A stretch of 15,502 nucleotides of DNA from contig JBDONT010000040.1 in NCBI GenBank assembly GCA_039831155.1, positions 1 through 15,502 of the forward strand, read 5' to 3'. This DNA comes from Nautiliaceae bacterium (GTDB taxonomy: Bacteria; Campylobacterota; Campylobacteria; Campylobacterales; Nautiliaceae). Positions 1 to 15,502 of this stretch are shown here, piece after piece. The notes beneath the pieces were generated by a model. The model worked only from the letters and a program-made list of their open reading frames with translations. It did no database searches and was not told the origin of the DNA. The position numbers were made by a program, and so were the translations under genes. Position 1 is the stretch's first letter; the number at the start of each line of letters is the position of its first letter.

Positions 1-294
1 CTTCTCTTTTATTCTTTTAGCAAGCCTTAAATTAAACGAAGGTGCGTCAATCAATAAAATCTTATCAACTTCACCCGCTAAGTCACTCAGTTTTTCAATA
101 GTCTCTTTTGCAAGTTTAATTTTTGGAATAACATCAAAAAAACCCATTACATTAAATTCATTGCTATCAATTATAGGCTCTCCCAAAGATTTATCAAAAA
201 TTCCCACAATCTCAACACCCTCTAACCTCTTTAAGACCTCTTTTAAATGTAAATTCGCACTCGGCTCAATAGCACTTACTAAAATCTTACTCAA
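1..294 (-). CDS. lpxB: Lipid-A-disaccharide synthase, N-terminal 98 codons (truncated by window edge)
   Basis: Not in ORF track. Hand translation from TTG at 294: MSKILVSAIEPSANLHLKEVLKRL...NVMGFFDVIPKI...ILLIDAPSFNLRLAKRIKEK, showing the LpxB motifs S-A-x-E-x-S-A/G, VMGF and IDxPxFNLxLAK. AAAGG SD at 301-305. Confidence 0.93.
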   Translation of the reverse strand, partial: MSKILVSAIEPSANLHLKEVLKRLEGVEIVGIFDKSLGEPIIDSNEFNVMGFFDVIPKIKLAKETIEKLSDLAGEVDKILLIDAPSFNLRLAKRIKEK

Positions 295-412
295 ACTCGA
301 CCTTTGTTTGATAGATTATCTTTTTTTTAATCTTTTTAGGTTTTATTTTGCACTTTTTCTCTTCTATTTTTCCATCAACAAGCTTTTCTCCGAAATTTCT
401 TGGCATACACAT
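287..412 (-). CDS. Putative small Lys-rich protein, 41 aa (MCMPRNFGEKLVDGKIEEKKCKIKPKKIKKKIIYQTKVEFE)
   Basis: ATG lies 1 nt after the res stop, with AAAGGG upstream as SD. Its stop overlaps the lpxB start by 8 nt, so it exactly fills the res-lpxB gap. Confidence 0.6.
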   Translation of the reverse strand: MCMPRNFGEKLVDGKIEEKKCKIKPKKIKKKIIYQTKVEFE

Positions 413-413
413 A

Positions 414-3302
414 TTAACCCTTTAAAACCGAACTGATAATTTTTTCTATTTTATCTTTTCTTAATTGTTTTTTGAAAATAATTTTTATTTTTTCATTAAA
501 AAACTTTTCTGCCATTTTTATTTTAATTTTTTCTTCAAAAGTTAAATCTTTTTCATCCTTATCTTTTGTTTCTATTACAAAACATACTCTCCTAACTTCA
601 TCTCCTCTTTTTAAAACATAAGCAAAATCCGGGGAATAGCTTTTTCCTCCTATTATAGGAATTCTTATTGAGTTTTTAGGAATTTTTGTAAATACTTCTA
701 TCACATCGTCATTATATTTAATATTTTCTTTTTCCAATTCACTATCATAAAAAAGCTCCTCAAAATAGTAACTCTTAGCAACTTTTTCGCTTGAATAATT
801 AACTCCTATATCAGAAGCATTTATCTCTTTTAGAGGATTTCCGTTTTTATCCGTAAGTTTTGTAGGGTGAATTGAACTTTTAATAAGTTTATAGTTAATC
901 TCAAATTTTTTAAACGAATTTAATAGTAAATACTCATCAAAATAATACTTAATTTTTCTTATGGTTTGATAATTAAGATACTTTGAAATATCCAAAATTT
1001 TATCTTTCTTTAATCTCAAAAACACTTTATGAGCCGTTTTTACATTAATCTTGCATAATTTGCTAACCTCTAAGACAAATTCTTTATAACTTAAATTTTT
1101 AATATCGCTAAACTCTTCTTCCATTCTTTTATTTTCAACATACGCCTCATCTTCTACCACTACCTTTTTAGCTTCAAAATAGACTCTATTTTCTACAAAA
1201 TCATCTCTGTTTTTAAAGAAGCTATAAAAAAGCTCTTCAAATTTTTCCTCACTATCTACTTTTATCTCCATTAAAGCTTTTTGATTTATCTTCTCCCACA
1301 CTTCTTTTAACTTATCATATTTTCCCACTATTACTTTTACTTTTGATTTTACTTTTTTATCTGCTTTTTTAACTTTATTTTCATAAACTCTCTCTTCTTC
1401 AAAAACCAAAGGATACATCTCTTTTAATTTTTTAAGACCGTCATTAATAAATTTTTTATTATCATCAATAATATCATCTAAAATCAACCTAGCAACCAGC
1501 TTTTTTCTATCTTCTTTATAAAGTTTAACAATACCCTCAATCAATTCATCACTAAGTTTATCCAATTTTTCTAAATTAAATAGGTTTGATTCTTCATTTA
1601 TTTCATTAATTAATCTATCTACAAAATCCTCTTCACTAAAATCCACAAAATAGTGCAAGAAAAATTCATCCTTTACCCTAACCCCAAATTCATTAACAGG
1701 AAGCCTAAGCCCTCTTCCAACCTCTTGAAGTTTGGAAATTTCACTTCCACTACTTCTTAACTTACAAATTTGAAAAACATTAGGGTTATCCCACCCTTCT
1801 TTCAAAGTCCATTTAGAAAATATAAATCTTCTAGGATTATTTAAATCCAATAGTTTATCTTTATCGTGTAAAATCTCATTAATCTCTTTTTCAATTTCTT
1901 CATCTTTTGCCTGATTATCTTTTGAAAAATATCCTCCGTGAGTTTTAGAGATATCTTTTAGAGACTTTTCAAGATATTTTTTATAAAACTCATCTTTTGT
2001 ATTTTTAAGATTCTCTTCAATACAACCCTTTATATTCTCTTCAACAATTTTTCTTAATTTCCCGTTTTCATCTCTATACTCATCAATATTATCAATAAAA
2101 AACAGAGTTAAAGGTTTAATTTTAGGTTTTCCCTCTAAGTTTCTCCCTTCTATCAGCTCTTTTTCTATTTTAAAATGATTTTTTATAGCTTTTCTTATCA
2201 TCATCTCTTCAATAGTCTCACTAAAAGAGTATGGATTAAATTTATCTTTCTTTTTCAAAATCATTCCATTAGAGAGTAATAATTCACTTTTATTCATCTT
2301 TTCAATAAAAAGCCCCTCTATTTCCGGATGAATAATTCCCAAACTATCCTTTACTCCTAACTTAAAACTCTTTTTTTTACCTTCTTTTAAAACAAAAGTA
2401 GCCTCTTTCCCATCTAAATTTATAAGCTCAACCAATGCATTTTTGCCACTCTCGTTTTTTTCAATATATCCAATTACCCCTTTTACCAAATTATCATTAA
2501 AAGCCCTTGCCGCCGTAAGAGTGTATATTAAATTTTCAAATTTTTTATTTCCCTTTTTATCCTCATCAAAAGTAGCACCAAACCTTAAAATAAATTGAGG
2601 ATTAAGCTTTTGGATATTTTTCCACGTTTTATTATCTTTTTTAAACCTATGAGGCTCATCAATTATAACAACCGGATTAATTGACGCTATCGCATCAAAA
2701 GGGTTTGTAAATTTATTAAAAAGAGTTCTATCATAATTTTTTGAGAGGGTATCTGAATTTAACATCCCTTGATTTATAAGCAAAACTTCAATAGTATTTT
2801 TACTTTTCCTAGCCTCTACAAACGATTTAATACTTGTGGGCATATACTCTTTTTTATTTTTATTTTTTTTGCTCTCAACTACATATAAATTTATAGTTTT
2901 TTGATACTCATCCTTAAAATGCTCCCTTGCACTCTCATTCAAAATAAAATTAACCGCCCCAGCCTTAATTGACAAACTCGGCACAATTACTACAAACTTA
3001 TTTATTCCATAAAATCTATTTAGTTCAAACATCGCCTTTGTATAGGTATAAGTTTTACCGGTTCCCGTTTCCATCATAATATCAATTACATTGCTTTTTA
3101 TTGGCTTTAATTTTATTTCGTTTTTGTGCATTAAATTTTCAATATTTTTAAGATAAATCAATGAATTTATATCAATAGTAGGATTTACATAGTCTTTTAA
3201 ATAACTTTTTTCATACCTTATTTCTAAATCTTTAAACACTTCCACAATCGCTTCAACCGCTCTTGTTTGATGAGACAAATTTCTCTCAAATACAAACTTC
3301 AT
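414..3302 (-). CDS. res: Type III restriction enzyme Res subunit (EcoP1I/EcoP15I-like)
   Basis: SF2 helicase motifs METGTGKT, DEPH, FGATF, TLKEGWDNPN and QEVGRGLR; C-terminal PD-(D/E)xK nuclease SYSPDF...VIETK; directly downstream of mod. Confidence 0.96.
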   Translation of the reverse strand: MKFVFERNLSHQTRAVEAIVEVFKDLEIRYEKSYLKDYVNPTIDINSLIYLKNIENLMHKNEIKLKPIKSNVIDIMMETGTGKTYTYTKAMFELNRFYGINKFVVIVPSLSIKAGAVNFILNESAREHFKDEYQKTINLYVVESKKNKNKKEYMPTSIKSFVEARKSKNTIEVLLINQGMLNSDTLSKNYDRTLFNKFTNPFDAIASINPVVIIDEPHRFKKDNKTWKNIQKLNPQFILRFGATFDEDKKGNKKFENLIYTLTAARAFNDNLVKGVIGYIEKNESGKNALVELINLDGKEATFVLKEGKKKSFKLGVKDSLGIIHPEIEGLFIEKMNKSELLLSNGMILKKKDKFNPYSFSETIEEMMIRKAIKNHFKIEKELIEGRNLEGKPKIKPLTLFFIDNIDEYRDENGKLRKIVEENIKGCIEENLKNTKDEFYKKYLEKSLKDISKTHGGYFSKDNQAKDEEIEKEINEILHDKDKLLDLNNPRRFIFSKWTLKEGWDNPNVFQICKLRSSGSEISKLQEVGRGLRLPVNEFGVRVKDEFFLHYFVDFSEEDFVDRLINEINEESNLFNLEKLDKLSDELIEGIVKLYKEDRKKLVARLILDDIIDDNKKFINDGLKKLKEMYPLVFEEERVYENKVKKADKKVKSKVKVIVGKYDKLKEVWEKINQKALMEIKVDSEEKFEELFYSFFKNRDDFVENRVYFEAKKVVVEDEAYVENKRMEEEFSDIKNLSYKEFVLEVSKLCKINVKTAHKVFLRLKKDKILDISKYLNYQTIRKIKYYFDEYLLLNSFKKFEINYKLIKSSIHPTKLTDKNGNPLKEINASDIGVNYSSEKVAKSYYFEELFYDSELEKENIKYNDDVIEVFTKIPKNSIRIPIIGGKSYSPDFAYVLKRGDEVRRVCFVIETKDKDEKDLTFEEKIKIKMAEKFFNEKIKIIFKKQLRKDKIEKIISSVLKG

Positions 3303-3303
3303 C

Positions 3304-5247
3304 TTAATACCTTACTATAAGCTCAATTTTATCTAAATCTTTTTTATTGTAGTTATTAATACTCTCATAAATCTCTCTTTGAGTTTTACTATCAAAAACA
3401 TACCCATTAATTACAATTTTAGAAGGTAAAAACTCACTATCTTTATCAATTCTTTCTAAAATCGCCGCTAAATTATCAAGCCTAAACCCACCATCTACCA
3501 AGTAAAGCTTATTTTCCAAATAATACCCCTTATACCCGTTAAAATCTATCTCTTTTAAATCTTTATGAAGTTTTATCCCATCAAAAACTTTCCACGTAGT
3601 AAGAAGTGCATTTTTATCGGTAATTTCTCTAAACAAATCAACATCTTCAAGCTCTTCTATATCTTTTAAATTCTCTTCTGGCATAGGAATAGTCTCAAAC
3701 TCTTTAAATCCTAAATCAATTTTATCAATCCACTCTTTATCTTTGTTTTCTTCTTTTATTTTTTTAGCCGCTCTTATGAGTCTCTCTTTTGTAATATCAA
3801 AAATAGTAGGATTTTCTATTTTCAATTCATTTTTTACAAAATCGTATGCCGTTTTGCTTTTTTTAGGGTCAATTGGCTCTGGGAGTTGAACTAAAATAAA
3901 CTTTCTATCTCCTCCATCCTCTGCATTAAGCTGCATTACTGCATCGCCAGTAGTGCCAGAACCGGCGAAGAAGTCTAAAACATATTCATCACCCACATTT
4001 CCAAGCCTAACAAAATCTTTAATAAGCTCAATAGGTTTTGAATAATCAAATACTTTCTCATTAAATAGTTTTTTTATATAAGCATTTGAATTTGCCATTG
4101 AGTATTTTGGGGAATAAAAAGTCGTTTTCCCTCTTTTTGAAGGTAAATCCCCAAGAGAGGGTCTTTGTTTTTTGTATAAACTAAACCCATCCCTTGTCTT
4201 TTTTACAATTACTTCATCTTTATCTCTTAAAAACTTCTCTTTACTCCAATACCAACTCATCTCTTTACCATCTGTAATAGGCAATAATTCATAATCATAC
4301 CCATCCTTTTTTTCTAAGGAAAAATCTAAACTCTCTTTATTTATATAAATTGGAAAAAACAAATTTGGTCTCTTTTCTCGTGGAGCATTAACTCCCGTTG
4401 CTTTTAAACTTCCCCCTTCTTTATAATAACCTTTCTTATCTATCTGCCACTTTTCTAACTCTTTTTCATCATCAATTGGCAAAACCCCAAATTCAAAATT
4501 ATCTTTGTTTTTTGCATAAATCAAACAATACTCGTGAGTTTCCATCATCCCTGAACTATTATCGTTACCATTTAAATTATTTACAATTGTTAATTGATAC
4601 AAAAAATTCTCCTCCCCAAAAATCTCATCCATCAAGAGTCTAAGTTGAGCGACTTCATTATCATCAATACTTACAAAAATAACCCCGTCATCTTTTAAAA
4701 GTCTTCTTGCAATATAAAGCCTTGGATACATAAAGGTAAGCCAAGCACTGTGAGAATTGCTTTTGCTATTTACAAAATCCAAAATTCTTTTTGCCTTCTC
4801 TATGTCAATTCCGGCCAATTTAGAGAGTTCATCTGGGGTAAATTTTATGTCATCCTCATACACAAACCCGTCATTTCCGGTATTATAAGGAGGGTCAATA
4901 TAAATCATTTTAACATCTCTCTCATAAGCATTGACTAGATGCTTTAAAACTTCTAAATTATCACCTTTTATTAAAACATTTTGAGAATTGTTATTTTTTG
5001 CATTCCACTCTTTATTTTCTCTTAGAAGTGTTCTAACCGGCTCATTTGCCAAAACTTTTGCGTAGCTTTTCCCAAGCCATTCAAGAGAATAAGTCTCTTT
5101 TGATATATCGGTTTGGTTTTGAATATCCTCTTTAAACTTCTCAATTAAAAATTTTCCCTCTTTATCAAAATACTCTGGAAAAAGTTTTTTAAGTTCTTCA
5201 ATCTTTGAAGGGATACCAATTTCACTTAACTTCTCTTTTTTCATCAA
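3304..5247 (-). CDS. mod: Type III RM N6-adenine methyltransferase Mod subunit (EcoP15I-like)
   Basis: Motif IV DPPY before motif I DFFAGSGTT (beta class), with a variable TRD between them; family segments WLGKSYA, GDNLEVLKHL and SHSAWLTFMYPRL. Start could be 5247 or the next ATG at 5244. Confidence 0.96.
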   Translation of the reverse strand: MMKKEKLSEIGIPSKIEELKKLFPEYFDKEGKFLIEKFKEDIQNQTDISKETYSLEWLGKSYAKVLANEPVRTLLRENKEWNAKNNNSQNVLIKGDNLEVLKHLVNAYERDVKMIYIDPPYNTGNDGFVYEDDIKFTPDELSKLAGIDIEKAKRILDFVNSKSNSHSAWLTFMYPRLYIARRLLKDDGVIFVSIDDNEVAQLRLLMDEIFGEENFLYQLTIVNNLNGNDNSSGMMETHEYCLIYAKNKDNFEFGVLPIDDEKELEKWQIDKKGYYKEGGSLKATGVNAPREKRPNLFFPIYINKESLDFSLEKKDGYDYELLPITDGKEMSWYWSKEKFLRDKDEVIVKKTRDGFSLYKKQRPSLGDLPSKRGKTTFYSPKYSMANSNAYIKKLFNEKVFDYSKPIELIKDFVRLGNVGDEYVLDFFAGSGTTGDAVMQLNAEDGGDRKFILVQLPEPIDPKKSKTAYDFVKNELKIENPTIFDITKERLIRAAKKIKEENKDKEWIDKIDLGFKEFETIPMPEENLKDIEELEDVDLFREITDKNALLTTWKVFDGIKLHKDLKEIDFNGYKGYYLENKLYLVDGGFRLDNLAAILERIDKDSEFLPSKIVINGYVFDSKTQREIYESINNYNKKDLDKIELIVRY

Positions 5248-7865
5248 ACCTCCTTAAACTCTCTCTCATCAACATAAAAAAGTTTTCCCCTTGCTTTTTT
5301 ACCGGTAATCTTTTCAACTGCCTCTATATATCCTCTAACCTGCTTAATATAAGCCCTCTCATCGTGTGGGCGGGTTGATTTATAATCAATAATAACTATT
5401 TCTTCTCCTTCAACTAGTAAATCAATTCTACCAACATTCCCCTTAAAAATAAAAGGCACCTCTTTTTTGCCATTTGGAATAAGTGGTTTTGCTTTTTCTA
5501 CTTTTTCTTTTACTTCATCAATATCGCAAAAATCCCCATACCTGTTTCTAACCGCCTCAATATCTCCACATTCAAAAGCGTAGTGAATTGCATTTCCAAG
5601 ATAAATTGCTTCAAAATCGTTTGGCTTATACTCCTCTTCTTTTACTTTAAGCTCTTGTTTTCCATAATTTTGAATTTCAACCTCCACCTCTTCTTCGAAA
5701 GAGTGCTTATTATCTTGACTAGGGATAACCCCTCCTATTATGCACTTTTCAAGAGTACTTACAAAAGCAGACTTACTTTCTCCTTTTTTCGTAACTTCGG
5801 CTCTTTTTAAAATAATCAAAGAGTTTTCAGCCCTTGTAAACGCCACATATTCTAAATTTTTTTTATCTTCTATTTCAAGTTCTTTTTCTTTATCAACAAT
5901 CTTTTTATACTCCTCATCCACAAACTCTCTGTTCTTAAATTTCAGCTTCATTTTTTTTAATTTTGCATCCTCGTAATAAAAAACGATATTTCCTTTTTTA
6001 TTGTTTTCTCTTGATAGTCTATCAAGGACTATAGTATGTTTAAATTCAAGCCCTTTACTTTTGTGAATAGTCATAACTACTATTCCATCAAACTCTTTTA
6101 AAGGCATCTCCTCATCCCACTCGTCTATTTTATCCACAAAATCCACCAACGTATCATACTTTCTTGAATGATACAAAAGCCTAAGAGTAGATTCATCCGT
6201 TAAATCGAATTTATCCATAATCTCTTTTATCATCAAAAGAGGTCTTTTAATTTGAATATCAACCTCCACTTCACCCCATTTTTTACCTATTAACGATAAA
6301 AAATTTAAAAGTTCTATCTTATCGGTATTGTTATTTAAATATTTCATCAAAGAAATAACGGCCTTAGCGTTTGGCTGGGAGATTACTTTTTTGGTTTTAG
6401 TCGTAATTACTTTTTTACCTTTTGATTTAAAAAAATCCCCCACATCCAAAATATCATCGTTTTTATGCACCAATACCGCAATATCACTTTCTTTAACTCC
6501 GTTTTTAATTAAAAATTCTATCTTCTCATAAAGTTTATCAAACATCTCTTCTTTTGTGGCTTCATCAACCTCAACATACCCTCTCTCTTTCCTATGGGCT
6601 TTTTCTTTCAAATTAAACTTTTCATTTACAAATTCAACTATATTCTTAGCACTCCTGTAATTAACGTTTAACTCTTCCACCTCAAGCCCGTAAGGCTTAT
6701 ACTTTAAAGCCACCTTCTCAAAAAGCTCCTTTTCTCCTCCTCTAAACCTATAAATCGCCTGCTTTATATCTCCCACATAAAAAAAACTTCTAAATTCACG
6801 CCTTCCTATCCCACTTGCAATTTCCGTAACAATAGGCTCGAATATCTCCCACTGGGTAACGGAAGTGTCTTGAAATTCGTCAAGTAAGATATGATTCATT
6901 TTACTATCAAGCCTAAAATACAAAAACTCTTTATCAAGTTTTTCTCTTAAAAGTTCATACACCAAATGTTCTATATCCTTAAAATCAAGTCTATTTTCGT
7001 CTTTTTTTAAGTTCCATTTAATCTCTTTATATTTATTGTAAAACTTAAATAAAGATTCAAAAAACGAATATTCGACATAATTAAAATAGTCTTTAAAATA
7101 GTTTTGAATAACAACTAAACATTCATCAAACCACTCTTCATAAATCTTCTTAAAATGCCAGTAATTAAGACTTTCTTTGCAAAACCACCCGCTCTTATAA
7201 GCATCATAAAACTCTATATTAAAAGTACCTTTTGCCTGTTTACTGGCTGAAGAATTTAAAATAAAATCCTTTAATCTCAAAAAAGCTTTTTTAGCTTTTT
7301 TATCATCCGGCTTTGAAAAAGGTGTGAGAGTGATGTTTTTTAGTTCTTTATCTTTTTCGTATAATATCTCAAACAACTCAACCAAATTATAAAAATTATT
7401 CTCCCTCTTTGCCACGTCTATAAGCTCTAAAAACTCCCTGTCTTTTAGAGTGTTTAAAAATTTACTAAAAACAACCTCCCTATCGATTCCCCCTATATCA
7501 AACCCACTCCTAACCCCGGCAAAATAGCTAAATTTCCTAAGAATCTTATTAATAAAAGAGTCTATCGTCTGAATATTAATATCGCTGTTTAAAAAAGCCC
7601 TTAAGAGTCTGTTTTTCTTTTCTAAAAGCTCTCCTTTTGAGATATTAAGCTCACTACAAACCATATTCAAAACATTCTCATCATTTCCAAGCTCTTTTAA
7701 AAACTTAACGATTCTCTCTTTCATTTCGTTACTTGCTTTATTCGTAAACGTAATTGCTATAATATTTACCGGATTATCCACACTAAGAAGAGAAATATAT
7801 CTGTTTGCCAGCCTAAACGTCTTACCACTTCCCGCACTCGCCTTAACTGCTAAAAGCCTTTTCAT
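5244..7865 (-). CDS. addA: AddA (RecB-like) helicase-nuclease
   Basis: UvrD-type motifs ASAGSGKT, TFTNKA, DEFQDT, VGDIKQAIYRFRG, TIHKSKGLEF and YVAFTRA; C-terminal nuclease GRIDLL...IIDYKS. Confidence 0.95.
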   Translation of the reverse strand: MKRLLAVKASAGSGKTFRLANRYISLLSVDNPVNIIAITFTNKASNEMKERIVKFLKELGNDENVLNMVCSELNISKGELLEKKNRLLRAFLNSDINIQTIDSFINKILRKFSYFAGVRSGFDIGGIDREVVFSKFLNTLKDREFLELIDVAKRENNFYNLVELFEILYEKDKELKNITLTPFSKPDDKKAKKAFLRLKDFILNSSASKQAKGTFNIEFYDAYKSGWFCKESLNYWHFKKIYEEWFDECLVVIQNYFKDYFNYVEYSFFESLFKFYNKYKEIKWNLKKDENRLDFKDIEHLVYELLREKLDKEFLYFRLDSKMNHILLDEFQDTSVTQWEIFEPIVTEIASGIGRREFRSFFYVGDIKQAIYRFRGGEKELFEKVALKYKPYGLEVEELNVNYRSAKNIVEFVNEKFNLKEKAHRKERGYVEVDEATKEEMFDKLYEKIEFLIKNGVKESDIAVLVHKNDDILDVGDFFKSKGKKVITTKTKKVISQPNAKAVISLMKYLNNNTDKIELLNFLSLIGKKWGEVEVDIQIKRPLLMIKEIMDKFDLTDESTLRLLYHSRKYDTLVDFVDKIDEWDEEMPLKEFDGIVVMTIHKSKGLEFKHTIVLDRLSRENNKKGNIVFYYEDAKLKKMKLKFKNREFVDEEYKKIVDKEKELEIEDKKNLEYVAFTRAENSLIILKRAEVTKKGESKSAFVSTLEKCIIGGVIPSQDNKHSFEEEVEVEIQNYGKQELKVKEEEYKPNDFEAIYLGNAIHYAFECGDIEAVRNRYGDFCDIDEVKEKVEKAKPLIPNGKKEVPFIFKGNVGRIDLLVEGEEIVIIDYKSTRPHDERAYIKQVRGYIEAVEKITGKKARGKLFYVDEREFKEV

Positions 7866-10090
7866 TCATCCCTCCCACACGCTACTTTATAATCACAAAA
7901 CCTGCAAATTTCACTAGCTTTTTTAATTTTTTCTTTACCGTCAACCTCATAAACTATATCCGAAGCTTCTTTTACTTTTTTAGGAAGAGAATTTAAAACC
8001 TCTTTTAACTCTTTTAACTTTATTACGCCTTTTTCTTTTTTCGTTTCTTTAATATCCCAAATAACGATTTCAATCTCTTTATTAGGAAAATGCTTTTTAG
8101 CTAAAAGGTAATAAAAGGTAGTCTGAAAATCGTTAATATACTCCTCATTTTTTTTGCTCTCTTTTGAGGTTTTATAATCGATAAACACAACCTTTTTATC
8201 AAATACGTCAACTCTGTCGACTTTCGCCTTTAAAAGAACCCCTTCAAACTCCACTTCAAATCTTTTCTCAACCAAATTAAAAGCCGTCTTCATCTCATCA
8301 AAGTCTTTTTCACAAAAAGCTTTAATCTTATCGCTCCATTTAGCCAAAACTTCAAACAAAAGTTTTTTATCGCTTATTCTGCTTACCATTTCTTGAATTA
8401 TCTTATTATAATACGCCCCGGAAGTAGAGATTTTATCTTTTTGTTTGATACTCTCTTCTACCGCTTTATGAAAAAGATTACCGAAAAACTCTTCATCCTT
8501 TTTACTCTCAATCTCTAAAACGTAACTGAAATAATACTTCTTAGGACATTCCAAAAGCGTTTTTAAAGTAGTCGGATAAATAGGATACTTTACTTCAAAC
8601 TCTTCATCATACACCGTCAAATCAAAACTGTTTTCTTTAAAAAAGTTATATTTTTTAGCCTCTTTTCCCTCAAATCCAAGTTCATATAAAAACCTACTCT
8701 CACTCATATCATCGTTTTTTACGTAAGAAATGGCAACCTTTTTAGCTTTGTTGATAAGCTGATAATAGTAGTGCTTTTGTAAATTTTCTTTATCGAATCT
8801 GGTAGGGAGTTTTGCGTTTTTTCGTATGAAGGTATTTAAAAACATGTCACTATCTTTTACCCTAGGGACAAACTCGTCATTAAAATCAATCATTATAACT
8901 CCCTCAAACTCCATCCCCCTACTCTCAAGAACCCCCATACAGGTAATTTTTCCACTATAAACGTCATCAAAGCTAAGTTCTTTTAATCTCTCAAGTACAA
9001 AATACAAAAACTCCCTTTTATCCTTAAACATCTCCTTAAAAGCTTCCAACTTAAAAAGCTCTTCATCCACAACTTTTAACTCTTTTTCAGAAGCGTTGTT
9101 TCTTATAAACTCTATTACATCGCTTTTATCAAACTCTTCAATCACATCCTCACATTTCTTAAGTGCTTTTTCATCTCCCGTTAAATATTCGTAAATAGAT
9201 TTTAGCTTTATATAAATAGGAGCGTTACTAAAGCTCTCACCCATAGCAAAGTTTAAATTCTCTTTTTCGTCAAAGAGTTTAATAATTTCGCTAAAATTTT
9301 CATCCGGTAAAATAACTACAATATTTTCGGGTTTAATTCCACTTTCTACAAACTCTTTTATCTTAGCGAAAATAAACCCAATCTCTCCCATTCTGTCACT
9401 AAAGTGTTCTACTTCAATTTCCGGATTTTTATAATTAAAGTCTCTTCTTATAAGCTTTTTATTATGAAAATCAAACTCAAACTTCCCATCTTTTACACTA
9501 ATTTGCAAAGATTTTTCAATTAAATTTTTATTAAACTCATCAGCTTCAAAATAAATTTTTATAGGCAAATCTATTTTACTTAAAACCTCAATATCAAATT
9601 TACTCAAATACCCGTCAAGCCTAAGTTCAATTTCATCAATTCCTTCCAAAAGCCCCTTATTTATCCTAAAATCCTCTATCAAAAATCTATCAATATATCC
9701 GTTTTTGGCTAAAATCTCCTTATAGTTTTTATAAATCTCTTCCAAAATAGCCAAATGTTCGTCAAAATCAAGATAAATATCATTCATTCTAACTTCATTT
9801 ATATCTACTCTTTCTAAAAAAAGCTCATTAAAAAAATCAAATATAAAATCACTATCCTCAAAAAAAGCTAAAAACTCTTTGCTAATACCCAGTTTTTCTA
9901 CATCTACATTTTTTATAGCTTCAAAAAGATACTTCTTCCTCAAATCCTTATCTATAAATTTAACCCCATCAACCACTACGATTTTGTCAAAAAATTCCCC
10001 TATACTCATATATTTATCTAAAAATCGGTTATCTTTATCTTCAAGCCAATTTCTTATCTGACGCCGGGTTGTAAAGACTTTAAGTTTCAT
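7862..10090 (-). CDS. addB: AddB nuclease subunit with Fe-S staple
   Basis: Degenerate helicase region (MGVLESRG), nuclease KVDRVD...IDYKT, cysteines ECPKKYYF plus CRFCDYKVAC; 4-nt overlap with addA. Confidence 0.92.
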   Translation of the reverse strand: MKLKVFTTRRQIRNWLEDKDNRFLDKYMSIGEFFDKIVVVDGVKFIDKDLRKKYLFEAIKNVDVEKLGISKEFLAFFEDSDFIFDFFNELFLERVDINEVRMNDIYLDFDEHLAILEEIYKNYKEILAKNGYIDRFLIEDFRINKGLLEGIDEIELRLDGYLSKFDIEVLSKIDLPIKIYFEADEFNKNLIEKSLQISVKDGKFEFDFHNKKLIRRDFNYKNPEIEVEHFSDRMGEIGFIFAKIKEFVESGIKPENIVVILPDENFSEIIKLFDEKENLNFAMGESFSNAPIYIKLKSIYEYLTGDEKALKKCEDVIEEFDKSDVIEFIRNNASEKELKVVDEELFKLEAFKEMFKDKREFLYFVLERLKELSFDDVYSGKITCMGVLESRGMEFEGVIMIDFNDEFVPRVKDSDMFLNTFIRKNAKLPTRFDKENLQKHYYYQLINKAKKVAISYVKNDDMSESRFLYELGFEGKEAKKYNFFKENSFDLTVYDEEFEVKYPIYPTTLKTLLECPKKYYFSYVLEIESKKDEEFFGNLFHKAVEESIKQKDKISTSGAYYNKIIQEMVSRISDKKLLFEVLAKWSDKIKAFCEKDFDEMKTAFNLVEKRFEVEFEGVLLKAKVDRVDVFDKKVVFIDYKTSKESKKNEEYINDFQTTFYYLLAKKHFPNKEIEIVIWDIKETKKEKGVIKLKELKEVLNSLPKKVKEASDIVYEVDGKEKIKKASEICRFCDYKVACGRDE

Positions 10091-10600
10091 TTAACTACCT
10101 TCCAATTCCTCAAAAGCTTTTTTAACTTTTAAATTAAGTACTTTTTTCCTTATCTCTTTGAGTCTTCTCTCTTCATAGCTTAAAACCTCTTTAGCCGGTA
10201 TGCACCCTCTGACAAAAACCTCTTTTTCATCTTTATAATATTCTATTTTTTCAAATTTCATATTTTTATCTACAAAAAGGTTTAAATTATCGTCTTTTTT
10301 AAATTTTTTCATTAAAGCAATCTCTTTTTGAGTGTTAAACTTAGGAGCGTTTTCATAAATTACAACATCTATAAGACCGTCTATTTTTTTTATCATTTTA
10401 ATTTTAGCTTTTCTTTTTGCCTTATCTATCGCAGAAAAATCACCCTTTTCATAATCATATACACAAATTTCTCCATCCACTCTTTTCATATACCAAGAAG
10501 GGGCACCTTGAATTTTTACAGTGGAAAAATTATCCAATACACAGTTGGTTACGTGCTTTACCAAACTACTAACTATCGCAGAAACTATTGTCAAAAGCAT
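10091..10600 (-). CDS. Hypothetical protein, 169 aa, weakly LPP20-like
   Basis: Coupled between dnaX and addB (gaps of 2 and 0 nt) with AAAGGA SD; hydrophobic N-terminus and GAPSWY motif reminiscent of LPP20-like proteins; no clear lipobox. Confidence 0.8.
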   Translation of the reverse strand: MLLTIVSAIVSSLVKHVTNCVLDNFSTVKIQGAPSWYMKRVDGEICVYDYEKGDFSAIDKAKRKAKIKMIKKIDGLIDVVIYENAPKFNTQKEIALMKKFKKDDNLNLFVDKNMKFEKIEYYKDEKEVFVRGCIPAKEVLSYEERRLKEIRKKVLNLKVKKAFEELEGS

Positions 10601-10602
10601 AA

Positions 10603-12075
10603 TTATCCTTTAATAATTTTTTCTATCTTAACATCACTGCCAAAAATTTCTCTTACTTTTCTAATTACCTCCTCTGATTTATCGTTTAATGAGATGCTAG
10701 TTTTTTTTTTAGGAGGTTGCGGTTGTGGAGATGATAGCTGTGCTTCTTTACATCTGATAGGTTCTATTTTAGTACCGATTCCAAACACTTCGTTAATCAA
10801 AGGTCTTATTACGGGAGAAAAAAATCTTTTAAACATCTCTTTACATTCGCTATTAGGACAACTCTCCCACTTTAAAACATTATTCTCAAAAGAGATAAAT
10901 TTCACGCTAGTTTCAAAACACACACCTAAATTCAAATCTCTTTCTTTTATTTTTTTGACAAGTTCTTTAAATTTATCAACCGGTTCAAATAAAGGTTCTT
11001 TAACAGTTTCTAAAAACTCTTTTTTTACTACTTTTTTTTCCAAATCTTTTATCAAATCATCTATTTTATGAGGTTTAATCGCTTCTACCATTCTAAAAAA
11101 CATCAAACTAAGCACAAATTCATTATCACTGTTATATTTTATAAGCTCTTTTGAATCGGCTACAATATTAAAAAACCTCTCAACGGTAATTAAAGGCAAA
11201 CTTCCATTAAACATAGCATCTTTTATGTATAAAACAACTTCATCCAAAATAGCCTCTATATCGTAATCTTTTACCTCTTTTATAAGCTCTTTTAAACTTT
11301 TTTTATCCTTATTTTTAATAGTTTCAAAGATTTTATTTATAATTTCCGGGTTTACAACCCCAAGCATTTCTACCACACTGTCTAAATCGACTTTTCCTCT
11401 GGCAAAAGCTATAGCCTGGTCTAAAAGCGTCAAAGAATCCCTAACACTTCCCTTTGCAGCTTTTACTATAAGTCTTAAAGCTTCTTCTTCAAACTCCACA
11501 TTCTCCGCTACTAAAATTTTAATAAGATAGTTTTCTATAATATCCTCTTTGATTTTATTAAACCTAAAATGCTGAACCCTGCTTAAAATAGTAGCCGGTA
11601 ATTTAAGAGGGTCTGTTGTAGCCATTATGAATTTTACATATTCCGGTGGTTCTTCAAGCGTTTTTAAAAGAGCGTTAAAAGCTTCATTTGTAAGCATATG
11701 AACTTCATCTATTATAAATATTTTATACCTGCCTATACTGGGTTTATATTTTGTATGTTCTATAAGTTCTCTTATATCTTCTATTTTTCTATTACTGGCA
11801 GCGTCCATTTCTATAATGTCAATATGCCTGTTTTCATTAGACATTTGACAGTTCTCACACTCTTCGCAAGGATTTGAAGTAGGTCCGTTATCACATTCAA
11901 GGGCTTTTGCAAAAATTCTGGCAGTAGTCGTTTTACCACTTCCTCTTAAACCGGAAAAGAGATAAGCGTGGGCTATTCTATTTTTATCAAGAGAATTTAC
12001 AAGAGTCTTTACGATAGCGTCTTGTCCAATAATCTCTTCAAATCTTTTGGGTCTGTATCTTAAAGCTAAAACCAA
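10603..12075 (-). CDS. dnaX: DNA polymerase III subunit gamma/tau
   Basis: LALRYRP, Walker A GLRGSGKTT, Zn module C...PCEECENC, EMDAAS, Walker B IIDEVHML, FNALLKTLEEPP, TILSR, GSVRDSL. TTG start with AAAGG SD. Confidence 0.97.
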   Translation of the reverse strand: MVLALRYRPKRFEEIIGQDAIVKTLVNSLDKNRIAHAYLFSGLRGSGKTTTARIFAKALECDNGPTSNPCEECENCQMSNENRHIDIIEMDAASNRKIEDIRELIEHTKYKPSIGRYKIFIIDEVHMLTNEAFNALLKTLEEPPEYVKFIMATTDPLKLPATILSRVQHFRFNKIKEDIIENYLIKILVAENVEFEEEALRLIVKAAKGSVRDSLTLLDQAIAFARGKVDLDSVVEMLGVVNPEIINKIFETIKNKDKKSLKELIKEVKDYDIEAILDEVVLYIKDAMFNGSLPLITVERFFNIVADSKELIKYNSDNEFVLSLMFFRMVEAIKPHKIDDLIKDLEKKVVKKEFLETVKEPLFEPVDKFKELVKKIKERDLNLGVCFETSVKFISFENNVLKWESCPNSECKEMFKRFFSPVIRPLINEVFGIGTKIEPIRCKEAQLSSPQPQPPKKKTSISLNDKSEEVIRKVREIFGSDVKIEKIIKG

Positions 12076-12078
12076 ATA

Positions 12079-12372
12079 TCAACCTTTATTTAAAATAGCT
12101 TCCACAATAGCATAAGCTACTTTATCTTTATTTTCAAAAAAGTCTCTGTTATCAAAATTTTTATCTATTTTAAATTCGAAAAAATTATTAGTTTTTATGA
12201 AATTTTTTAAATCTTCATTATTATCAATTAAAAAAAGCTCATTAATTAACTCTAAAATATCTTTATCTATTTCTATTCTTTCAACTAACCCTTTTAAATA
12301 ATCAACTTCTTTTTTATGTTTCTTTAGAACTTTAGATAAAAAATTTTGCCTATCTTTATTACACCATATCAT
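12079..12372 (-). CDS. Hypothetical protein, 97 aa
   Basis: First ORF after the consensus promoter; AGGT SD; ends 3 nt before the dnaX start; no recognised motif. Confidence 0.75.
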   Translation of the reverse strand: MIWCNKDRQNFLSKVLKKHKKEVDYLKGLVERIEIDKDILELINELFLIDNNEDLKNFIKTNNFFEFKIDKNFDNRDFFENKDKVAYAIVEAILNKG

Positions 12373-12403
12373 TTTTTTACCTGCTATGAATTTATAGGAA
12401 ATA

Positions 12404-12431
12404 ATTATATCTTAAAATAAGGTAATGTCAA
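12404..12431 (-). promoter_or_regulatory. Sigma70 promoter of the dnaX-addBA-mod-res-lpxB operon
   Basis: Minus strand TTGACA (12431-12426), 16 nt, TATAAT (12409-12404), 31 nt upstream of the 97-aa ORF. A second TATAAT lies at 12441-12436. Confidence 0.8.
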
Positions 12432-12473
12432 ACAAATTATAGTGTCAGTCGCTTTAGTTGAAAGTAATTTAAA

Positions 12474-12499
12474 TGGTAGTGAGGGGGAGACTTGAACTC
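12474..12499 (-). mobile_element. att site: tRNA 3'-end remnant (possibly tRNA-Leu) marking the left boundary of an integrative element
   Basis: Minus strand GAG-TTCAAGT-CTCCC-CCTCACT-A-CCA reads as partial T-stem, T-loop, 3' T-stem, 7-nt acceptor strand, discriminator and CCA. No D or anticodon arm upstream. 185 nt from an integrase start. Confidence 0.85.
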
Positions 12500-12510
12500 A
12501 CTCACTCTAT

Positions 12511-12660
12511 ATTTTCGTTGATTTTCGTTCGTTTTCAAATATTCCTTATTTTCGGGCTTTTTGATTTTTGAGATGATATACTTTTGATATGGCTTTATAT
12601 AGTTTAGAAGTCGTAACCCAACACGTAACCCATTGAGGGAGAGACTAAAGGAGACCAAAA
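12511..12660. repeat. Short direct-repeat pairs in the att arm (candidate integrase arm or directionality-factor sites)
   Basis: ATTTTCGTT at 12511 and 12521; CGTAACCCA at 12612 and 12624; GAGAC(T/C)AAA at 12641 and 12651. Confidence 0.6.
12574..12582 (+). promoter_or_regulatory. Candidate extended -10 promoter for the integrase
   Basis: TGATATACT (TGn-TATACT) about 100 nt upstream of the ATG; SD AAGGA at 12674-12678. Confidence 0.4.
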
Positions 12661-12684
12661 CTTCCACGCAAAAAAGGATTTGTA

Positions 12685-13776
12685 ATGGCTATTAAACACA
12701 GCGAATTTAAAGACATCGGAATAAAAAATATTAAACAACACAAAAAAGACAAATTAAAATTTTTGCTTGATTTTACATATCAGGGTAAAAGATACAAAAA
12801 AGTCGTTACGCTAAGTCATAGACCAAATTGGACATTAAAAGAGTATAAAAAAGAGGCTCAAAGACTGCTTAGCGAATTTCAGATGAATATAAAAGCGGGA
12901 TATAAACAAAATGAAGATATGAAAATAGATGAATTGTTTGAGCTTTTTATGCAGAACAACCCGACAAGTGAAAGTTGGGATAAAAAAAGAAAAGAAATTT
13001 ATAGACGATATATAAAAGCTGAAATCGGCTCTAAACGCTTAAAAGACATCAAACCTTTACATATCGGGAAAATTATATCAAAAATGAGAGATAAAGACTT
13101 ATCGCCAAATACACAAAATAAAGTGCTGGTTATTTTACGCCCTATGTTTGAATTTGCAATACACAATAAGTTAATAAAAGAAAATCCCGCTAAAGATATT
13201 CACATTAAACAAAAAGACACAAAAAAGATTGTAATAAACGCTCAGGAGAAACTAAAAAGAATTTATCAGGGTATTATGGAGCTATATGCCGATGACCCTT
13301 ATTACAGGGCATTTTTCCTATTTGCACTCAGCGGCAGAAGAAAAAGCGAAATATTGCAGTTGAGGTGGGAAAATATAGACCTTGAAAATAACTACTACTG
13401 GATAGCTGATGCAAAGCCGAATGAAAATCAACGCTATGACCTGCCGCCGCTCATTAAAGAGGCTCTGCTTGAACTCGGTGTTAAGCGTAAAGGCTGGGTA
13501 TTTTTCAGCTTTAAAAATCCTCAGGAGCATTTAAAAAAACCGGACAGACAGGTCGACAGACCTAAAAAATACCTTGATATTCCCGAATTTAGTCTGCATT
13601 ACTGCCACCATATATTAGCCTCTGCACTTATTGAAAAAGGTATTCCGACTTCAATAGTCAGCGGCGTATTGGGGCATAAAAACGCAACGACTATCAATAA
13701 GTATGTGAGTATCAATTATCACACCTCAACCCAAAAAGCAAATCAGGAAATGCTTGAAATAATAGAGCCGAAATAA
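12685..13776 (+). CDS. Tyrosine recombinase/integrase, probably catalytically impaired
   Basis: N-terminal arm-binding-like region, core-binding domain (LSPNTQNKVLVILRPMFEFA), box I SGRRKSE (R219), box II H305-Y-C-H308...LGH331...Y340. Confidence 0.92.
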   Translation: MAIKHSEFKDIGIKNIKQHKKDKLKFLLDFTYQGKRYKKVVTLSHRPNWTLKEYKKEAQRLLSEFQMNIKAGYKQNEDMKIDELFELFMQNNPTSESWDKKRKEIYRRYIKAEIGSKRLKDIKPLHIGKIISKMRDKDLSPNTQNKVLVILRPMFEFAIHNKLIKENPAKDIHIKQKDTKKIVINAQEKLKRIYQGIMELYADDPYYRAFFLFALSGRRKSEILQLRWENIDLENNYYWIADAKPNENQRYDLPPLIKEALLELGVKRKGWVFFSFKNPQEHLKKPDRQVDRPKKYLDIPEFSLHYCHHILASALIEKGIPTSIVSGVLGHKNATTINKYVSINYHTSTQKANQEMLEIIEPK

Positions 13777-13877
13777 GCCTTTTTTTCTTTTTGGCTATAT
13801 ACTCTACCAGCTAGGGCAGTTTTTTGATTGTAGCATCATTTTAGAGCGAATTAGGAGTATATTTTGAAAGGATAACA

Positions 13878-14311
13878 ATGGAGAAAAAACCATACTATAA
13901 AAAAGCTGAAATCGTTTGAATTGAATTTGGAGATTTATTAAAAGATATAGATTATACCGACTGCTTAAACAGAACTGATATTTCAAAAAGATATGGAATT
14001 AAGTTAAATAGAGAGTTTGCATACAAGCATATGGGACTAATAATAACTCCTGAATATTTAAACGAGGGAACACTTTTAGTAATTCCTATTACGACTAAAA
14101 GCCCAAGTTATGAAAATAAACTTGCAAAAGGATATAAAAATATTTTTTACTTACAAAAAGAGAAAACCCTTTTTTATTGAACGATAGTATTCTATTATTG
14201 GATAAAGTTTTACATATAGATAAATTAAAAGTTAAAGCTCATATGGGATTTGTAAGAAAAAGAATTTTTAAAGAAGTTTTACAATCATTTCAAAAGTTTT
14301 TAACCCCATAA
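13878..14311 (+). pseudogene. PemK/MazF-like endoribonuclease toxin pseudogene (about 144 aa reconstructed)
   Basis: SD AAAGGA at 13867-13872, ATG 13878. Reads MEKKPYYKKAEIV*IEFG...REFAYKHMGLII...TLLVIPITTK..., then after a -1 shift near 14165 NPFLLNDSILLLDKVLHIDKLKV...TP*. TGA at 13917 replaces the expected Trp. The motif order fits the PemK fold. Confidence 0.82.
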
Positions 14312-14332
14312 AGGGGTAAACGATATAATGTA

Positions 14333-14361
14333 ATTATACCTCAACGCATATTAAAAGTCAA
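14333..14361 (-). promoter_or_regulatory. Antisense sigma70 promoter facing the pemK-like gene
   Basis: TTGACT (14361-14356), 17 nt, TATAAT (14338-14333). Confidence 0.6.
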
Positions 14362-14369
14362 TCAAATCA

Positions 14370-14386
14370 AATTATGTGCTATAATT
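14370..14386 (+). promoter_or_regulatory. Extended -10 promoter of the TA operon with overlapping palindrome (candidate operator)
   Basis: TGCTATAAT at 14377-14385 inside the inverted repeat AATTAT-GTGCT-ATAATT; SD AGGAG at 14400-14404. Confidence 0.65.
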
Positions 14387-14411
14387 GAATAAATCATTCA
14401 GGAGTAACGCA

Positions 14412-14795
14412 ATGACTATGCAGATAGATTTAAGGAAAGTTTTTAAATTCGATAGGGAACTCCGAAAACTTATAGGTCAGCTTGAAATATTTAGGAATTT
14501 TTTAACTGCTCTTAATGCTGATGATTTGTCTAAAAACGATAAAAGGGAGCTTATAGAAATTGCAAGGCTTTTGTGGGAACTTAAAGACGAAATACAAGAC
14601 AATGAAGCGGTATCTAAAATAAAAGAGCTTTTTAGACTTATAGCTTATAAAGTAGAAGAAGGAGAAACTGAAGAGGATAAAATTTGGGCTTTAAGAGGGG
14701 ATATAGGTTATCTAGACTATTTAGATGCAAAGGAAAAAGGAATGTTAATAACAGGAGATGCCGAAACGTTTATAAGGCAAATTGATGAGTTATAA
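14412..14795 (+). CDS. Putative antitoxin, 127 aa
   Basis: ATG 14412 lies 7 nt after AGGAG (the ORF-track TTG at 14385 is within the promoter). It overlaps the toxin start by 11 nt and has an acidic C-terminal segment (YLDAKEKGMLITGDAETFIRQIDEL) like those of RelE-associated antitoxins. Confidence 0.7.
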   Translation: MTMQIDLRKVFKFDRELRKLIGQLEIFRNFLTALNADDLSKNDKRELIEIARLLWELKDEIQDNEAVSKIKELFRLIAYKVEEGETEEDKIWALRGDIGYLDYLDAKEKGMLITGDAETFIRQIDEL

Positions 14796-15060
14796 GATAA
14801 TAACGACCGATAAGTTTATGAAAAAACTTGCTAAACTCATTAAGAAAAATCCTGAATTAAAACCTAAAATCGCTAAAACTCTTAAACTTTTTGAAAATGA
14901 TATTAATCACCCTTCTTTAAGATTTCACAAATTAAAAGGAGAATTAAGCGATAAATACAGCGTATCGGTAGATATGAATTACAGAATAATACTTGAATTT
15001 ATTGTAACTGAAAAAGGCGTTATCCTGCTTGATATAGGCTCTCATGATGAGGTGTATTAA
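14785..15060 (+). CDS. RelE/YafQ-family type II toxin (mRNA interferase), 91 aa
   Basis: Basic protein with F-x-K-x-L-x-K-L, HPSLRFHKLKGEL, YSVSV...YRII and C-terminal DIGSHDEVY. Confidence 0.9.
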   Translation: MSYKIITTDKFMKKLAKLIKKNPELKPKIAKTLKLFENDINHPSLRFHKLKGELSDKYSVSVDMNYRIILEFIVTEKGVILLDIGSHDEVY

Positions 15061-15096
15061 ATTTTTGAGACATACCCAAAATTTTGTGTCTGTGAT

Positions 15097-15124
15097 ATTA
15101 TAGCAAAAAATTTTCATTCGTCAA
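15097..15124 (-). promoter_or_regulatory. Antisense sigma70 promoter facing the RelE/YafQ toxin gene
   Basis: TTGACG (15124-15119), 16 nt, TATAAT (15102-15097), with the extended -10 TG (TGCTATAAT). Confidence 0.65.
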
Positions 15125-15254
15125 CTCCAAGTCCAAATTTCATAACGAACATTTGGTTTAATTCATATCTTTTAGATTTGATTAAAGGATTAATTTTCCA
15201 GGTTTTATGCAATTTGTCAGTAACAATAAAAAGGGCTACGTTCAAAATATCCAT
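15114..15254 (-). CDS. Possible small ORF, 46 aa (MDILNVALFIVTDKLHKTWKINPLIKSKRYELNQMFVMKFGLGVDE)
   Basis: ATG at 15254 with a strong AAGGAGG (15274-15268) but a long 13-nt spacing; no recognised motif. Confidence 0.3.
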   Translation of the reverse strand: MDILNVALFIVTDKLHKTWKINPLIKSKRYELNQMFVMKFGLGVDE

Positions 15255-15367
15255 AGACTGAAAAAAACCTCCTTTTTTAAGCCTTTGTTTTTCAAAGGTA
15301 GAATGAACAGATTCTACTGCATTTGTTGCAGTTTATAAGTTTCCTGATAGATTCAGGATATTTTAAA
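15241..15367. other. Tandem hairpin cluster (candidate structured RNA or ssDNA signal)
   Basis: Four perfect stems: CCTTTG/CAAAGG 15282-15298, GTAGAAT/ATTCTAC 15298-15317, ACTGCA/TGCAGT 15316-15332, TCCTGA/TCAGGA 15342-15358. They are enclosed by AAAATATCC (15244-15252) / GGATATTTT (15356-15364). Confidence 0.55.
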
Positions 15368-15375
15368 AATGCCAG

Positions 15376-15502
15376 TATAATGCCCCATTTGTCAAGACAA
15401 TAAATTAAAAGATTTGTTTTCCATCTATTAAGCTACTTTATGTAACATTTTTTTATAAACACTCATAGGTTTATCATAACCTAGTGCTGAATGAAATCTT
15501 TT
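15376..15502 (-). mobile_element. IS3-family insertion sequence, downstream end (partial)
   Basis: Terminal IR-like TATAATGCCCCATTTGTCAAGACA (15376-15399) with an outward TTGACA, next to a transposase C-terminus. The exact end is inferred. Confidence 0.75.
15428..15502 (-). CDS. IS3-family transposase, last 24 codons
   Basis: Hand translation KRFHSALGYDKPMSVYKKMLHKVA* matches the IS3 OrfB C-terminal R-x-H-S-x-L-G-Y-x-x-P signature. Confidence 0.85.
   Translation of the reverse strand, partial: KRFHSALGYDKPMSVYKKMLHKVA

Follow-up and report, generated by a model that had tools for sequence, protein, structure and literature searches.

A putative convergent RNA gene behind a MazF-like toxin gene and an insertion-sequence promoter behind a RelE-like one in an integrated element of a Nautiliaceae bacterium

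We examined the whole of contig JBDONT010000040.1 (15,502 nucleotides, hereafter the window) from the 1.53 Mb genome, at ~31% GC, of a Nautiliaceae bacterium (assembly GCA_039831155.1). From ~12470 rightwards the window is occupied by an integrated element that carries, in this order, a tRNA gene fragment, an integrase, a MazF/PemK-like toxin gene, a RelE-like toxin operon (14412-15060) and repeated mobile DNA up to the contig end. Each toxin gene is followed on the opposite strand by a near-consensus promoter motif that faces it—promoter 1 behind the PemK-like gene and promoter 2 behind the RelE-like gene (Table 1). The original prediction took the two motifs for a single antisense-RNA control layer directed at both toxins. 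Our analysis led to a different reading, to which we assign a probability of about 0.65: the promoters are unrelated, promoter 1 serving the RNA gene of a toxin cassette and promoter 2 being part of an insertion sequence (IS). Throughout, genomes are labelled G### (the window's own being G000), loci L###, contigs of G000 C## and RNA runs X##.

Table 1. Features of the integrated element and its flank, in window coordinates
Feature	Position	Strand	Remarks
tRNA gene 3' fragment, 27 nt	12473-12499		adjoins integrase
Tyrosine integrase	12685-13776		assigned by Pfam
MazF/PemK-like toxin gene, decayed	13878..14311	plus	
Small convergent RNA, predicted 5' part	14296..14326	minus	start at ~14326 inferred from the -10 box
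GC-rich hairpin ACCCC/GGGGT	14303..14317	minus	spans the toxin stop codon
Promoter 1, TTGACT-17-TATAAT	14361..14333	minus	sigma-70 consensus score 11/12
TGC-TATAAT extended -10 box	14377..14385	plus	likely promoter of the RelE-like operon
127-aa open reading frame, no Pfam family	14412..14795	plus	candidate protein antitoxin of the RelE-like toxin
RelE/YafQ/ParE-like toxin gene, intact	14788..15060	plus	
IS-A, truncated right end of an IS256-like element (tentative assignment)	15067..15375	minus	tip at 15067; 19-bp terminal repeat 15067-15085
Promoter 2, TTGACG-16-TATAAT with TGC ahead of the -10 box	15124..15097	minus	sigma-70 consensus score 11/12
IS-A transposase C-terminal remnant, 72 aa	15117..15332	minus	stop at 15114-15116
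IS-B end (second IS, truncates IS-A)	15376..15502	minus	contig terminates inside IS-B

Both motifs combine sigma-70-type -35 and -10 hexamers at a spacing of 16-18 nt, and their positions were reproduced as first described, with the -10 box of promoter 1 lying 21 nt beyond the TAA of the PemK-like gene (14309-14311) and that of promoter 2 lying 36 nt beyond the TAA of the RelE-like gene (15058-15060). A hairpin had also been proposed at each predicted transcript start, and only the first of the two held up. In the minus-strand RNA, the stem at 14303-14317 is moderately stable (-9.7 kcal/mol, z-score -2.07, equalled by 7/200 shuffles), while the AGACA/TGTCT stem at 15068-15091 is weak (-4.6 kcal/mol, z-score -1.24, equalled by 20/200 shuffles) and differs from the minimum-energy fold.

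An order-wide search of 401 genomes recovered homologues of the PemK-like toxin in 11 genomes, at identities of 24-81% and with variable neighbours, including an integrase, argH with an OsmC-like gene, moaE/moeA and Fic-like genes. At each locus we scanned the 150 nt next to the toxin stop for convergent promoters with a score of 10/12 or more, with shuffled sequences as the expectation. Seven of the 11 genomic loci carried such a promoter and none did so on the plus strand (shuffle mean, 0.058 per locus); once G197 had been added, the count rose to 8/12, all with a 17-nt spacer, against 0/12 on the plus strand and 0.62 expected. Moreover, the promoter was found at 25/34 metagenomic loci (21 with the 17-nt spacer; plus strand, 2/34; expected, 2.2), or at 22/31 when these were counted by distinct flank. 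By comparison, canonical MazF loci from the same class, which encode proteins of ~110 aa, had a convergent promoter in a single case (1/26; plus strand, 2/26; expected, 2.4), and 23 of the 26 had an abutting upstream open reading frame (ORF) of 75-107 aa. No conserved upstream or antisense ORF was found at the 12 genomic loci of the PemK-like subfamily; the co-oriented antitoxin gene of toxin-antitoxin (TA) systems of type II is missing there, and the lack of a protein antitoxin gene, pointed out earlier for the window, is a feature of the homologues as well.

At closer range, the window aligns with G013, G024 and G002 over both promoter boxes and their spacing, over an AUCGUUU block and over the hairpin, which is present in G013 and G024 and maintained in G002 with a compensatory change. 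Homology to G019 begins only at 14371. The idea that promoter 1 arose as a junction accident between two modules was overturned both by the homologues from the order-wide search and by the G002 flank, in which the same -10 box, a -35 block that matches and the 17 nt between them come after a 37-nt insert. Additionally, because homology to the upstream regions of TA operons appears to start right after the -35 hexamer (alignment A2), the toxin-RNA cassette seems to end with its own promoter. Thus, the elements on which silencing of the PemK-like toxin by a convergent RNA had been proposed—the promoter, its 17-nt spacing and the stop hairpin—recur behind homologues in unrelated contexts, and we consider it very probable that promoter 1 is the promoter of an RNA gene conserved together with the toxin. 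A different arrangement occurs in the distant homologue L102, where a plus-strand promoter scoring 12/12 overlaps the stop and no convergent one is present.

Two facts had been overlooked in the original prediction: all DNA from 15067 rightwards is repeated mobile DNA, and the PemK-like gene is broken. The ORF list, a read-through translation and an alignment to the intact 138-aa homologue P0002 reveal that codon 14 is an in-frame TGA (13917-13919) and that the frame shifts at a run of Ts around 14170-14180. The window copy is a pseudogene, and the module a relic with an intact-looking RNA promoter; with the toxin dead, nothing is left in the window for an RNA to silence. The G002 copy has decayed too, by different lesions. 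Family membership is clear from the intact relatives. The Pfam family PemK_toxin (PF02452) matches P0002 at 2.4e-8 and the two window pieces weakly (E-values of 0.07 and 0.01), and 10/10 aligned subfamily proteins match it, the best at 1.9e-11. Among sequences with a solved structure, S. aureus MazF and B. subtilis EndoA come closest (E = 2e-8). Likewise, a structural model of P0002, with a predicted local distance difference test score (pLDDT) of 82.5, found MazF of S. aureus, B. subtilis and M. tuberculosis as its top Foldseek matches (E = 3.6e-6) and superimposed on MazF structures with template modeling scores of 0.78-0.80 by target (0.79 for S. aureus MazF); ToxN was not among the structural matches listed. 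The PemK-like toxin is therefore a true MazF relative of a divergent subfamily, whose members measure 133-166 aa and contain ~25 extra, poorly modelled residues after the first strand. Close relatives of P0002 are few—two proteins in a large protein database, one locus in genome contigs and none in a first metagenome scan—and neither PADLOC nor NCBIfam holds a specific family for the subfamily.

In the relatives, 50-100 nt of conserved, foldable sequence lie between the promoter and the toxin stop. For subgroup E (14 sequences), RNAalifold returned 13 pairs in which 182/182 cells are standard pairs, with 16 double-change cells and a covariation of 0.285 as compared to 0.102 in shuffles; pairing, double changes and covariation were each reached by 0/500 shuffles, and sliding the partner columns lowered pairing to 42-66%. 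Three invariant G-U pairs, which on the toxin strand are A-C or C-A mismatches, fit the convergent strand only, so the structure is assigned to the convergent transcript. Subgroup D (8 sequences) forms two helices with 15 pairs, six of them compensatory and one an invariant G-U pair. Furthermore, terminator-like sites on the RNA strand abut the toxin stop, at it or within a few bases, in L101, L100, L086 and L075. Judged by these sequences, the RNA of the better-preserved relatives appears to be a discrete gene of ~60-105 nt, with a predicted 3' end at the stop, rather than a long antisense transcript that enters the coding sequence (CDS). This result and the dead toxin limit the antisense-silencing proposal for the PemK-like gene, of which the conserved promoter and hairpin stand. 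The unit beside the toxin is tandemly duplicated in G002 (L033), G024 (L035) and G055 (L038). No match to Rfam 15 was obtained in the window region at E-values up to 1, and 20 subfamily loci gave only three (E = 0.4-0.7), far under the gathering scores. A covariance model built from subgroup E (R1) finds its 14 training loci and does not unite the subgroups; it is marginal in three F-type loci (E = 0.78-3.5) and weak in the control locus L055 (E = 5.9). In five of 13 subgroup-E loci (L093, L094, L099, L103 and L043), the Shine-Dalgarno region is complementary to a conserved 7-mer of the RNA.

We propose that promoter 1 would drive a small RNA gene aimed at the toxin gene, the stop hairpin being the first stem-loop of its transcript, and that toxin and RNA may form a mobile two-part cassette (~13878-14361 in the window), typical of a subfamily without a protein antitoxin gene; in the better-preserved relatives, this RNA would start from a sigma-70-type promoter, with 17 nt between the boxes, and end at an intrinsic terminator next to the toxin stop. 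MazF is the textbook example of a protein-neutralised (type II) toxin and, to our knowledge, RNA antitoxins have been described only for other toxin families or other gene layouts. The consistent pairing of an orphan MazF-fold toxin with a convergent structured RNA, and with no protein partner, points to an RNA antitoxin, and we lean towards the convergent RNA being the antitoxin of this toxin, an activity that we infer from these arrangements.

Such an antitoxin might operate in either of two ways, and known systems offer partial precedents for both. In a type I-like mode, the RNA would pair with the read-through 3' end of the toxin mRNA. Convergent type I RNA antitoxins have been described in par RNA I/RNA II of pAD1 and SprG1/SprF1 of S. 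aureus (PMC4885055), where, as here, a small RNA with its own promoter meets the toxin gene at its 3' end (PMC4885055). Type I toxins, however, are mostly small hydrophobic peptides, whereas the present one is a MazF-fold protein of 133-166 aa, and in several relatives (four loci scanned) the RNA would terminate at the stop with minimal CDS overlap, so that any pairing with the mRNA would depend on the extent of the toxin 3' untranslated region. In a type III-like mode, the RNA would bind the MazF-fold RNase directly. The type III systems ToxIN, CptIN and TenpIN are described as combining an endoribonuclease toxin of Kid/MazF-like fold with a structured RNA antidote (PMC5086642); the cassette has a toxin of that fold, a structured RNA with a putative antidote role and tandem units in G002, G024 and G055. 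Type III RNA, as described there, is a repeat array that lies upstream of the toxin, shares its strand and is set apart from it by a terminator (PMC5086642); here, in contrast, the RNA is downstream, convergent, under its own promoter and made of one or two units rather than an array, and the toxin matches MazF, not ToxN. Direct, type III-like binding is favoured by the stop-proximal terminator, by the conservation of the structure and by the tandem units, while the one-hairpin form in the window's subgroup, with no clear terminator, leans towards type I-like pairing. The cassette fits the full definition of neither type I nor type III.

Two further comparisons concern type II loci. The toxin shares its family, by Pfam (10/10), and its fold with MazEF/PemIK but lacks an abutting MazE-like ORF and has the ~25 additional residues. 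Antisense RNAs have been published for type II loci, namely aMEF at E. coli mazEF, reported as poorly conserved (PMC8749433), and asRelE2 at M. tuberculosis relBE2. These are alike in being convergent or antisense RNAs at a MazF or RelE locus; according to these reports, those loci retain the protein antitoxin, with the RNA as an additional layer of regulation, whereas here the RNA is conserved with the toxin. A bolder formulation, to which we grant slightly less than even odds, is that a MazF-fold RNase has swapped its protein antitoxin for a tail-to-tail structured RNA with its own promoter and terminator that neutralises the protein directly, in a cassette that moves among vent Campylobacterota.

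A competing explanation accepts the conserved 3' element as real and gives it another role than that of an antitoxin—another regulatory or processed RNA, a transcription-interference device or a recombination site of the cassette with promoter-like boxes. The RNA ends at the stop in several loci, so that pairing with the CDS is not required, and the cassette occurs in many contexts, both of which would agree with such roles. However, promoter and terminator lie on one strand, the G-U pairs suit only that strand, and a protein antitoxin gene is missing where 23/26 canonical loci have one. We regard this explanation as rather unlikely, although it is the rival that fares best against an RNA antitoxin encoded by the cassette.

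Promoter 2 has a different background. The motif lies within the last 60 bp of an element that we call IS-A, and the sequence from 15067 rightwards is a repeat, found at 97-99% identity at the ends of contigs C17 (both ends), C25, C32, C3 and C23. All IS-A copies start at the same base and each has a different flank; the 19-nt tip has nine exact matches genome-wide, again each with a different flank. One C17 copy and those on C25 and C32 carry the strict promoter 2 motif unchanged, the second C17 copy has a single change in the -35 box, and the C3 and C23 copies stop short of the motif. Diverged IS-A relatives in G048 retain TGC-TATAAT and lose the -35 box. The locus also exists without the element: G019 has the same integrase and the same RelE-like operon at 92% identity, IS-free, with a second TA operon directly after the relE stop, and a related strain in run X13 has a relE 93% identical to that of the window and diverges at 15062. 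No convergent promoter of at least 10/12 was found within 200 nt of RelE-like homologues (0/6 loci). Promoter 2 is, almost certainly, IS-borne and travels with the element. It would be an outward-facing promoter that forms part of the right end of an IS256-like IS, which would have inserted 7 nt past the RelE-like stop, and antisense transcription of relE, if any, would be a by-product.

The assignment of IS-A to the IS256 family is tentative. The transposase remnant aligns with a 402-aa protein of G012 (Pfam Transposase_mut, 8e-108) at 35% identity over 43 aa (BLASTP, E = 5e-5), and a Pfam search with the remnant by itself gave no relevant family. The window's IS-A is a stump, and contigs from three RNA runs carry other sequence past 15375 (depth 127 in X1). 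No complete copy was found in the assembly, which holds no contigs below ~1.9 kb, or in the relatives, which hold only ends or remnants; a subterminal 13-mer shared with IS-A is the basis on which the contig ends of C19, C30 and C22 are suggested as candidates for its left end. According to a review, many ISs carry complete outward promoters and IS256 forms junction or fusion promoters (PMC9330008); it lists complete outward promoters as confirmed experimentally for the families IS3, IS4, IS5, IS6, IS481, IS982, IS1380 and ISL3 (PMC9330008). Promoter 2 resembles the known outward promoters in being complete, in lying in the IS terminus and in reading over the inverted repeat into the neighbouring gene (PMC9330008), and differs from the IS256 cases covered in that review, which are fusion or junction promoters and not complete outward ones (PMC9330008). 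A complete outward promoter in an IS256-like element would be a minor addition to this picture.

Some related observations concern the mobile DNA itself. A 59-bp mini-element at C29:11840-11898 has the IS-A tip at both ends and keeps TGC-TATAAT; it occurs in two genera, with another copy at ~91-149 of L014 (G015). At C32:68-95, a same-strand ORF follows the outward IS-A promoter at a distance of no more than 300 nt, and this neighbour gene could be driven by it. In IS-B, present in the window and at the contig ends of C37, C40, C22 and C41, a TTGACA 15 nt from one tip faces outward and a TATAAT right at the opposite tip faces inward, an arrangement typical of a circle-junction promoter.

The RelE-like operon, for its part, appears to possess a protein antitoxin. 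The RelE-like protein matches YafQ_toxin (7.9e-6), HigB-like (1.2e-5) and ParE (1e-4) in Pfam, with only the ParE_toxin match just above the curated cut-off. The 127-aa ORF upstream is translationally coupled to the toxin gene, whose start it overlaps by 8 nt, and the TGC-TATAAT box ahead of it is kept in 4/4 aligned upstream regions (the window, two G019 operons and G003). A complex model of the 127-aa protein with the RelE-like toxin scored 0.86 (best of three controls, 0.01), a score reached by 51/78 solved complexes and 2/108 mismatched pairs in a benchmark; model runs agreed in at least 96% of contacts and the partner had a pLDDT of 85. The model supports binding of the toxin by the 127-aa protein, which would be the neutraliser of RelE. 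The second pair behind the first in G019 (L002, 1542-2896) encodes different proteins in the same design and has the same promoter and ribosome-binding-site block.

Antisense control of the RelE-like gene has thus lost its footing, as its promoter and supposed hairpin are the end of an IS, both are missing in G019 and five further homologues, and a partner protein is encoded upstream. A side effect of promoter 2 on relE is possible. A stronger variant holds that promoter 2 has been retained after the insertion owing to an antisense transcript that dampens relE, and in its favour transcription is predicted to begin 23 nt in from the IS tip, in the direction of relE, and contigs from RNA libraries span the relE/IS junction. 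The RNA data used here—four public runs aligned to 12300-15502—are stored as contigs, without strand or ends, and the junction contigs reach 15119-15123, beyond the start that promoter 2 would give, which means that some of that RNA at least must have another source; moreover, the motif is identical in other IS-A copies. Such an exaptation is, in our view, improbable compared with a promoter that merely belongs to the IS.

We also considered the rate at which such motifs arise by chance, a background count that the original prediction had itself called for. The strict motif TTGAC-N15-19-TATAAT has three matches over the 15.5 kb of the window, where 0.11 would be expected, and 0/200 shuffles reach three; with a loose scan threshold there is no enrichment (16 promoter matches vs 14.3 +/- 3.7). 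The third strict match, at 12431..12404 on the minus strand, scores 12/12 and lies upstream of a minus-strand operon (a 97-aa ORF and dnaX), which indicates that the organism uses textbook sigma-70 boxes. Genome-wide, TTGAC-N16-18-TATAAT has 31 matches, with ~6.4 expected from word frequencies. Four of these are promoter 2 motif copies within a repeat. The remaining 27 comprise 15 that have a same-strand ORF no more than 300 nt downstream, six that stand in front of tRNA operons, a groES-like gene or short ORFs, and six, promoter 1 among them, with nothing to serve. At C39:368-396 (plus strand), a strict consensus promoter has a GC-rich stretch and neither an ORF nor a tRNA behind it; a further small RNA may start there. 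On numbers alone, promoter 1 could be chance, a functionless product of AT-rich junction DNA, as would also fit the ~6.4 strict matches expected, the single-copy nature of the region and the dead state of the toxin it faces; the comparison with relatives decides otherwise, as the same promoter, spacing and hairpin stand behind homologues elsewhere and a convergent promoter behind just 1/26 controls, so that a spurious promoter 1 is very unlikely.

The least tenable rival is the one from which this work departed, a deliberate 3' antisense layer common to both toxin genes: both motifs are convergent and near consensus and antisense RNAs such as aMEF and asRelE2 are on record, but every IS-A copy that reaches far enough carries promoter 2, the promoter is missing behind 6/6 RelE-like homologues, including the IS-free G019 locus, and RelE has a predicted protein partner, from which it follows that the promoters are of separate origin and that the proposal of one shared layer was wrong.

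Several observations weigh against our reading of an RNA gene at promoter 1 and an IS end at promoter 2. Four of the 12 genomic loci (G048 at 9/12; G010, G014 and G191 at 8/12 or less) and nine of the 34 metagenomic ones fall below 10/12, and many loci are mutually related, so that the counts overstate independence; we judge the genomic loci to represent ~8 independent lineages. The window RNA, of minimal form, has a single 5-bp hairpin and lacks a clear terminator; R1 gives no match in the window, and homology of the window RNA to the two-hairpin RNAs is read from architecture and alignment A9. A terminator-like hairpin separates the promoter from the conserved hairpin in G002, and complementarity between the RNA and the toxin 5' untranslated region gave no consistent signal. 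The family assignment of IS-A is one 43-aa alignment, and its interior and left end are missing from the assembly; the aMEF paper, for its part, warns that unconserved antisense promoters can function (PMC8749433). Finally, the stretch 14303-14401 is uncovered among the RNA contigs listed, which neither support nor refute starts near 14326 and 15090; no transcript start was observed, and the firing of both promoters is predicted from their boxes.

To the left of the integrated element, the ORF list places housekeeping genes, dnaX among them, on the minus strand of bases 1-12400. The tRNA fragment at the boundary resembles an attachment-site copy. Contigs from three RNA runs carry on at 12473-12499 with the remainder of the tRNA, and the island seems to be missing from some cells or strains in those three samples.

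The pairing of a MazF/PemK toxin with a convergent RNA was not found by word searches of open-access full text, and the toxin-RNA cassette appears to be undescribed so far. A more general caution follows from promoter 2: a near-consensus promoter beside a gene may be that of a mobile element and not of the gene. If our reading of the cassette is true, a MazF subfamily paired with a convergent structured RNA would bridge TA types I, II and III, and it would explain 'orphan' MazF genes in annotation. With a protein of ~140 aa and an RNA of <110 nt, the cassette would also represent a compact, testable system.

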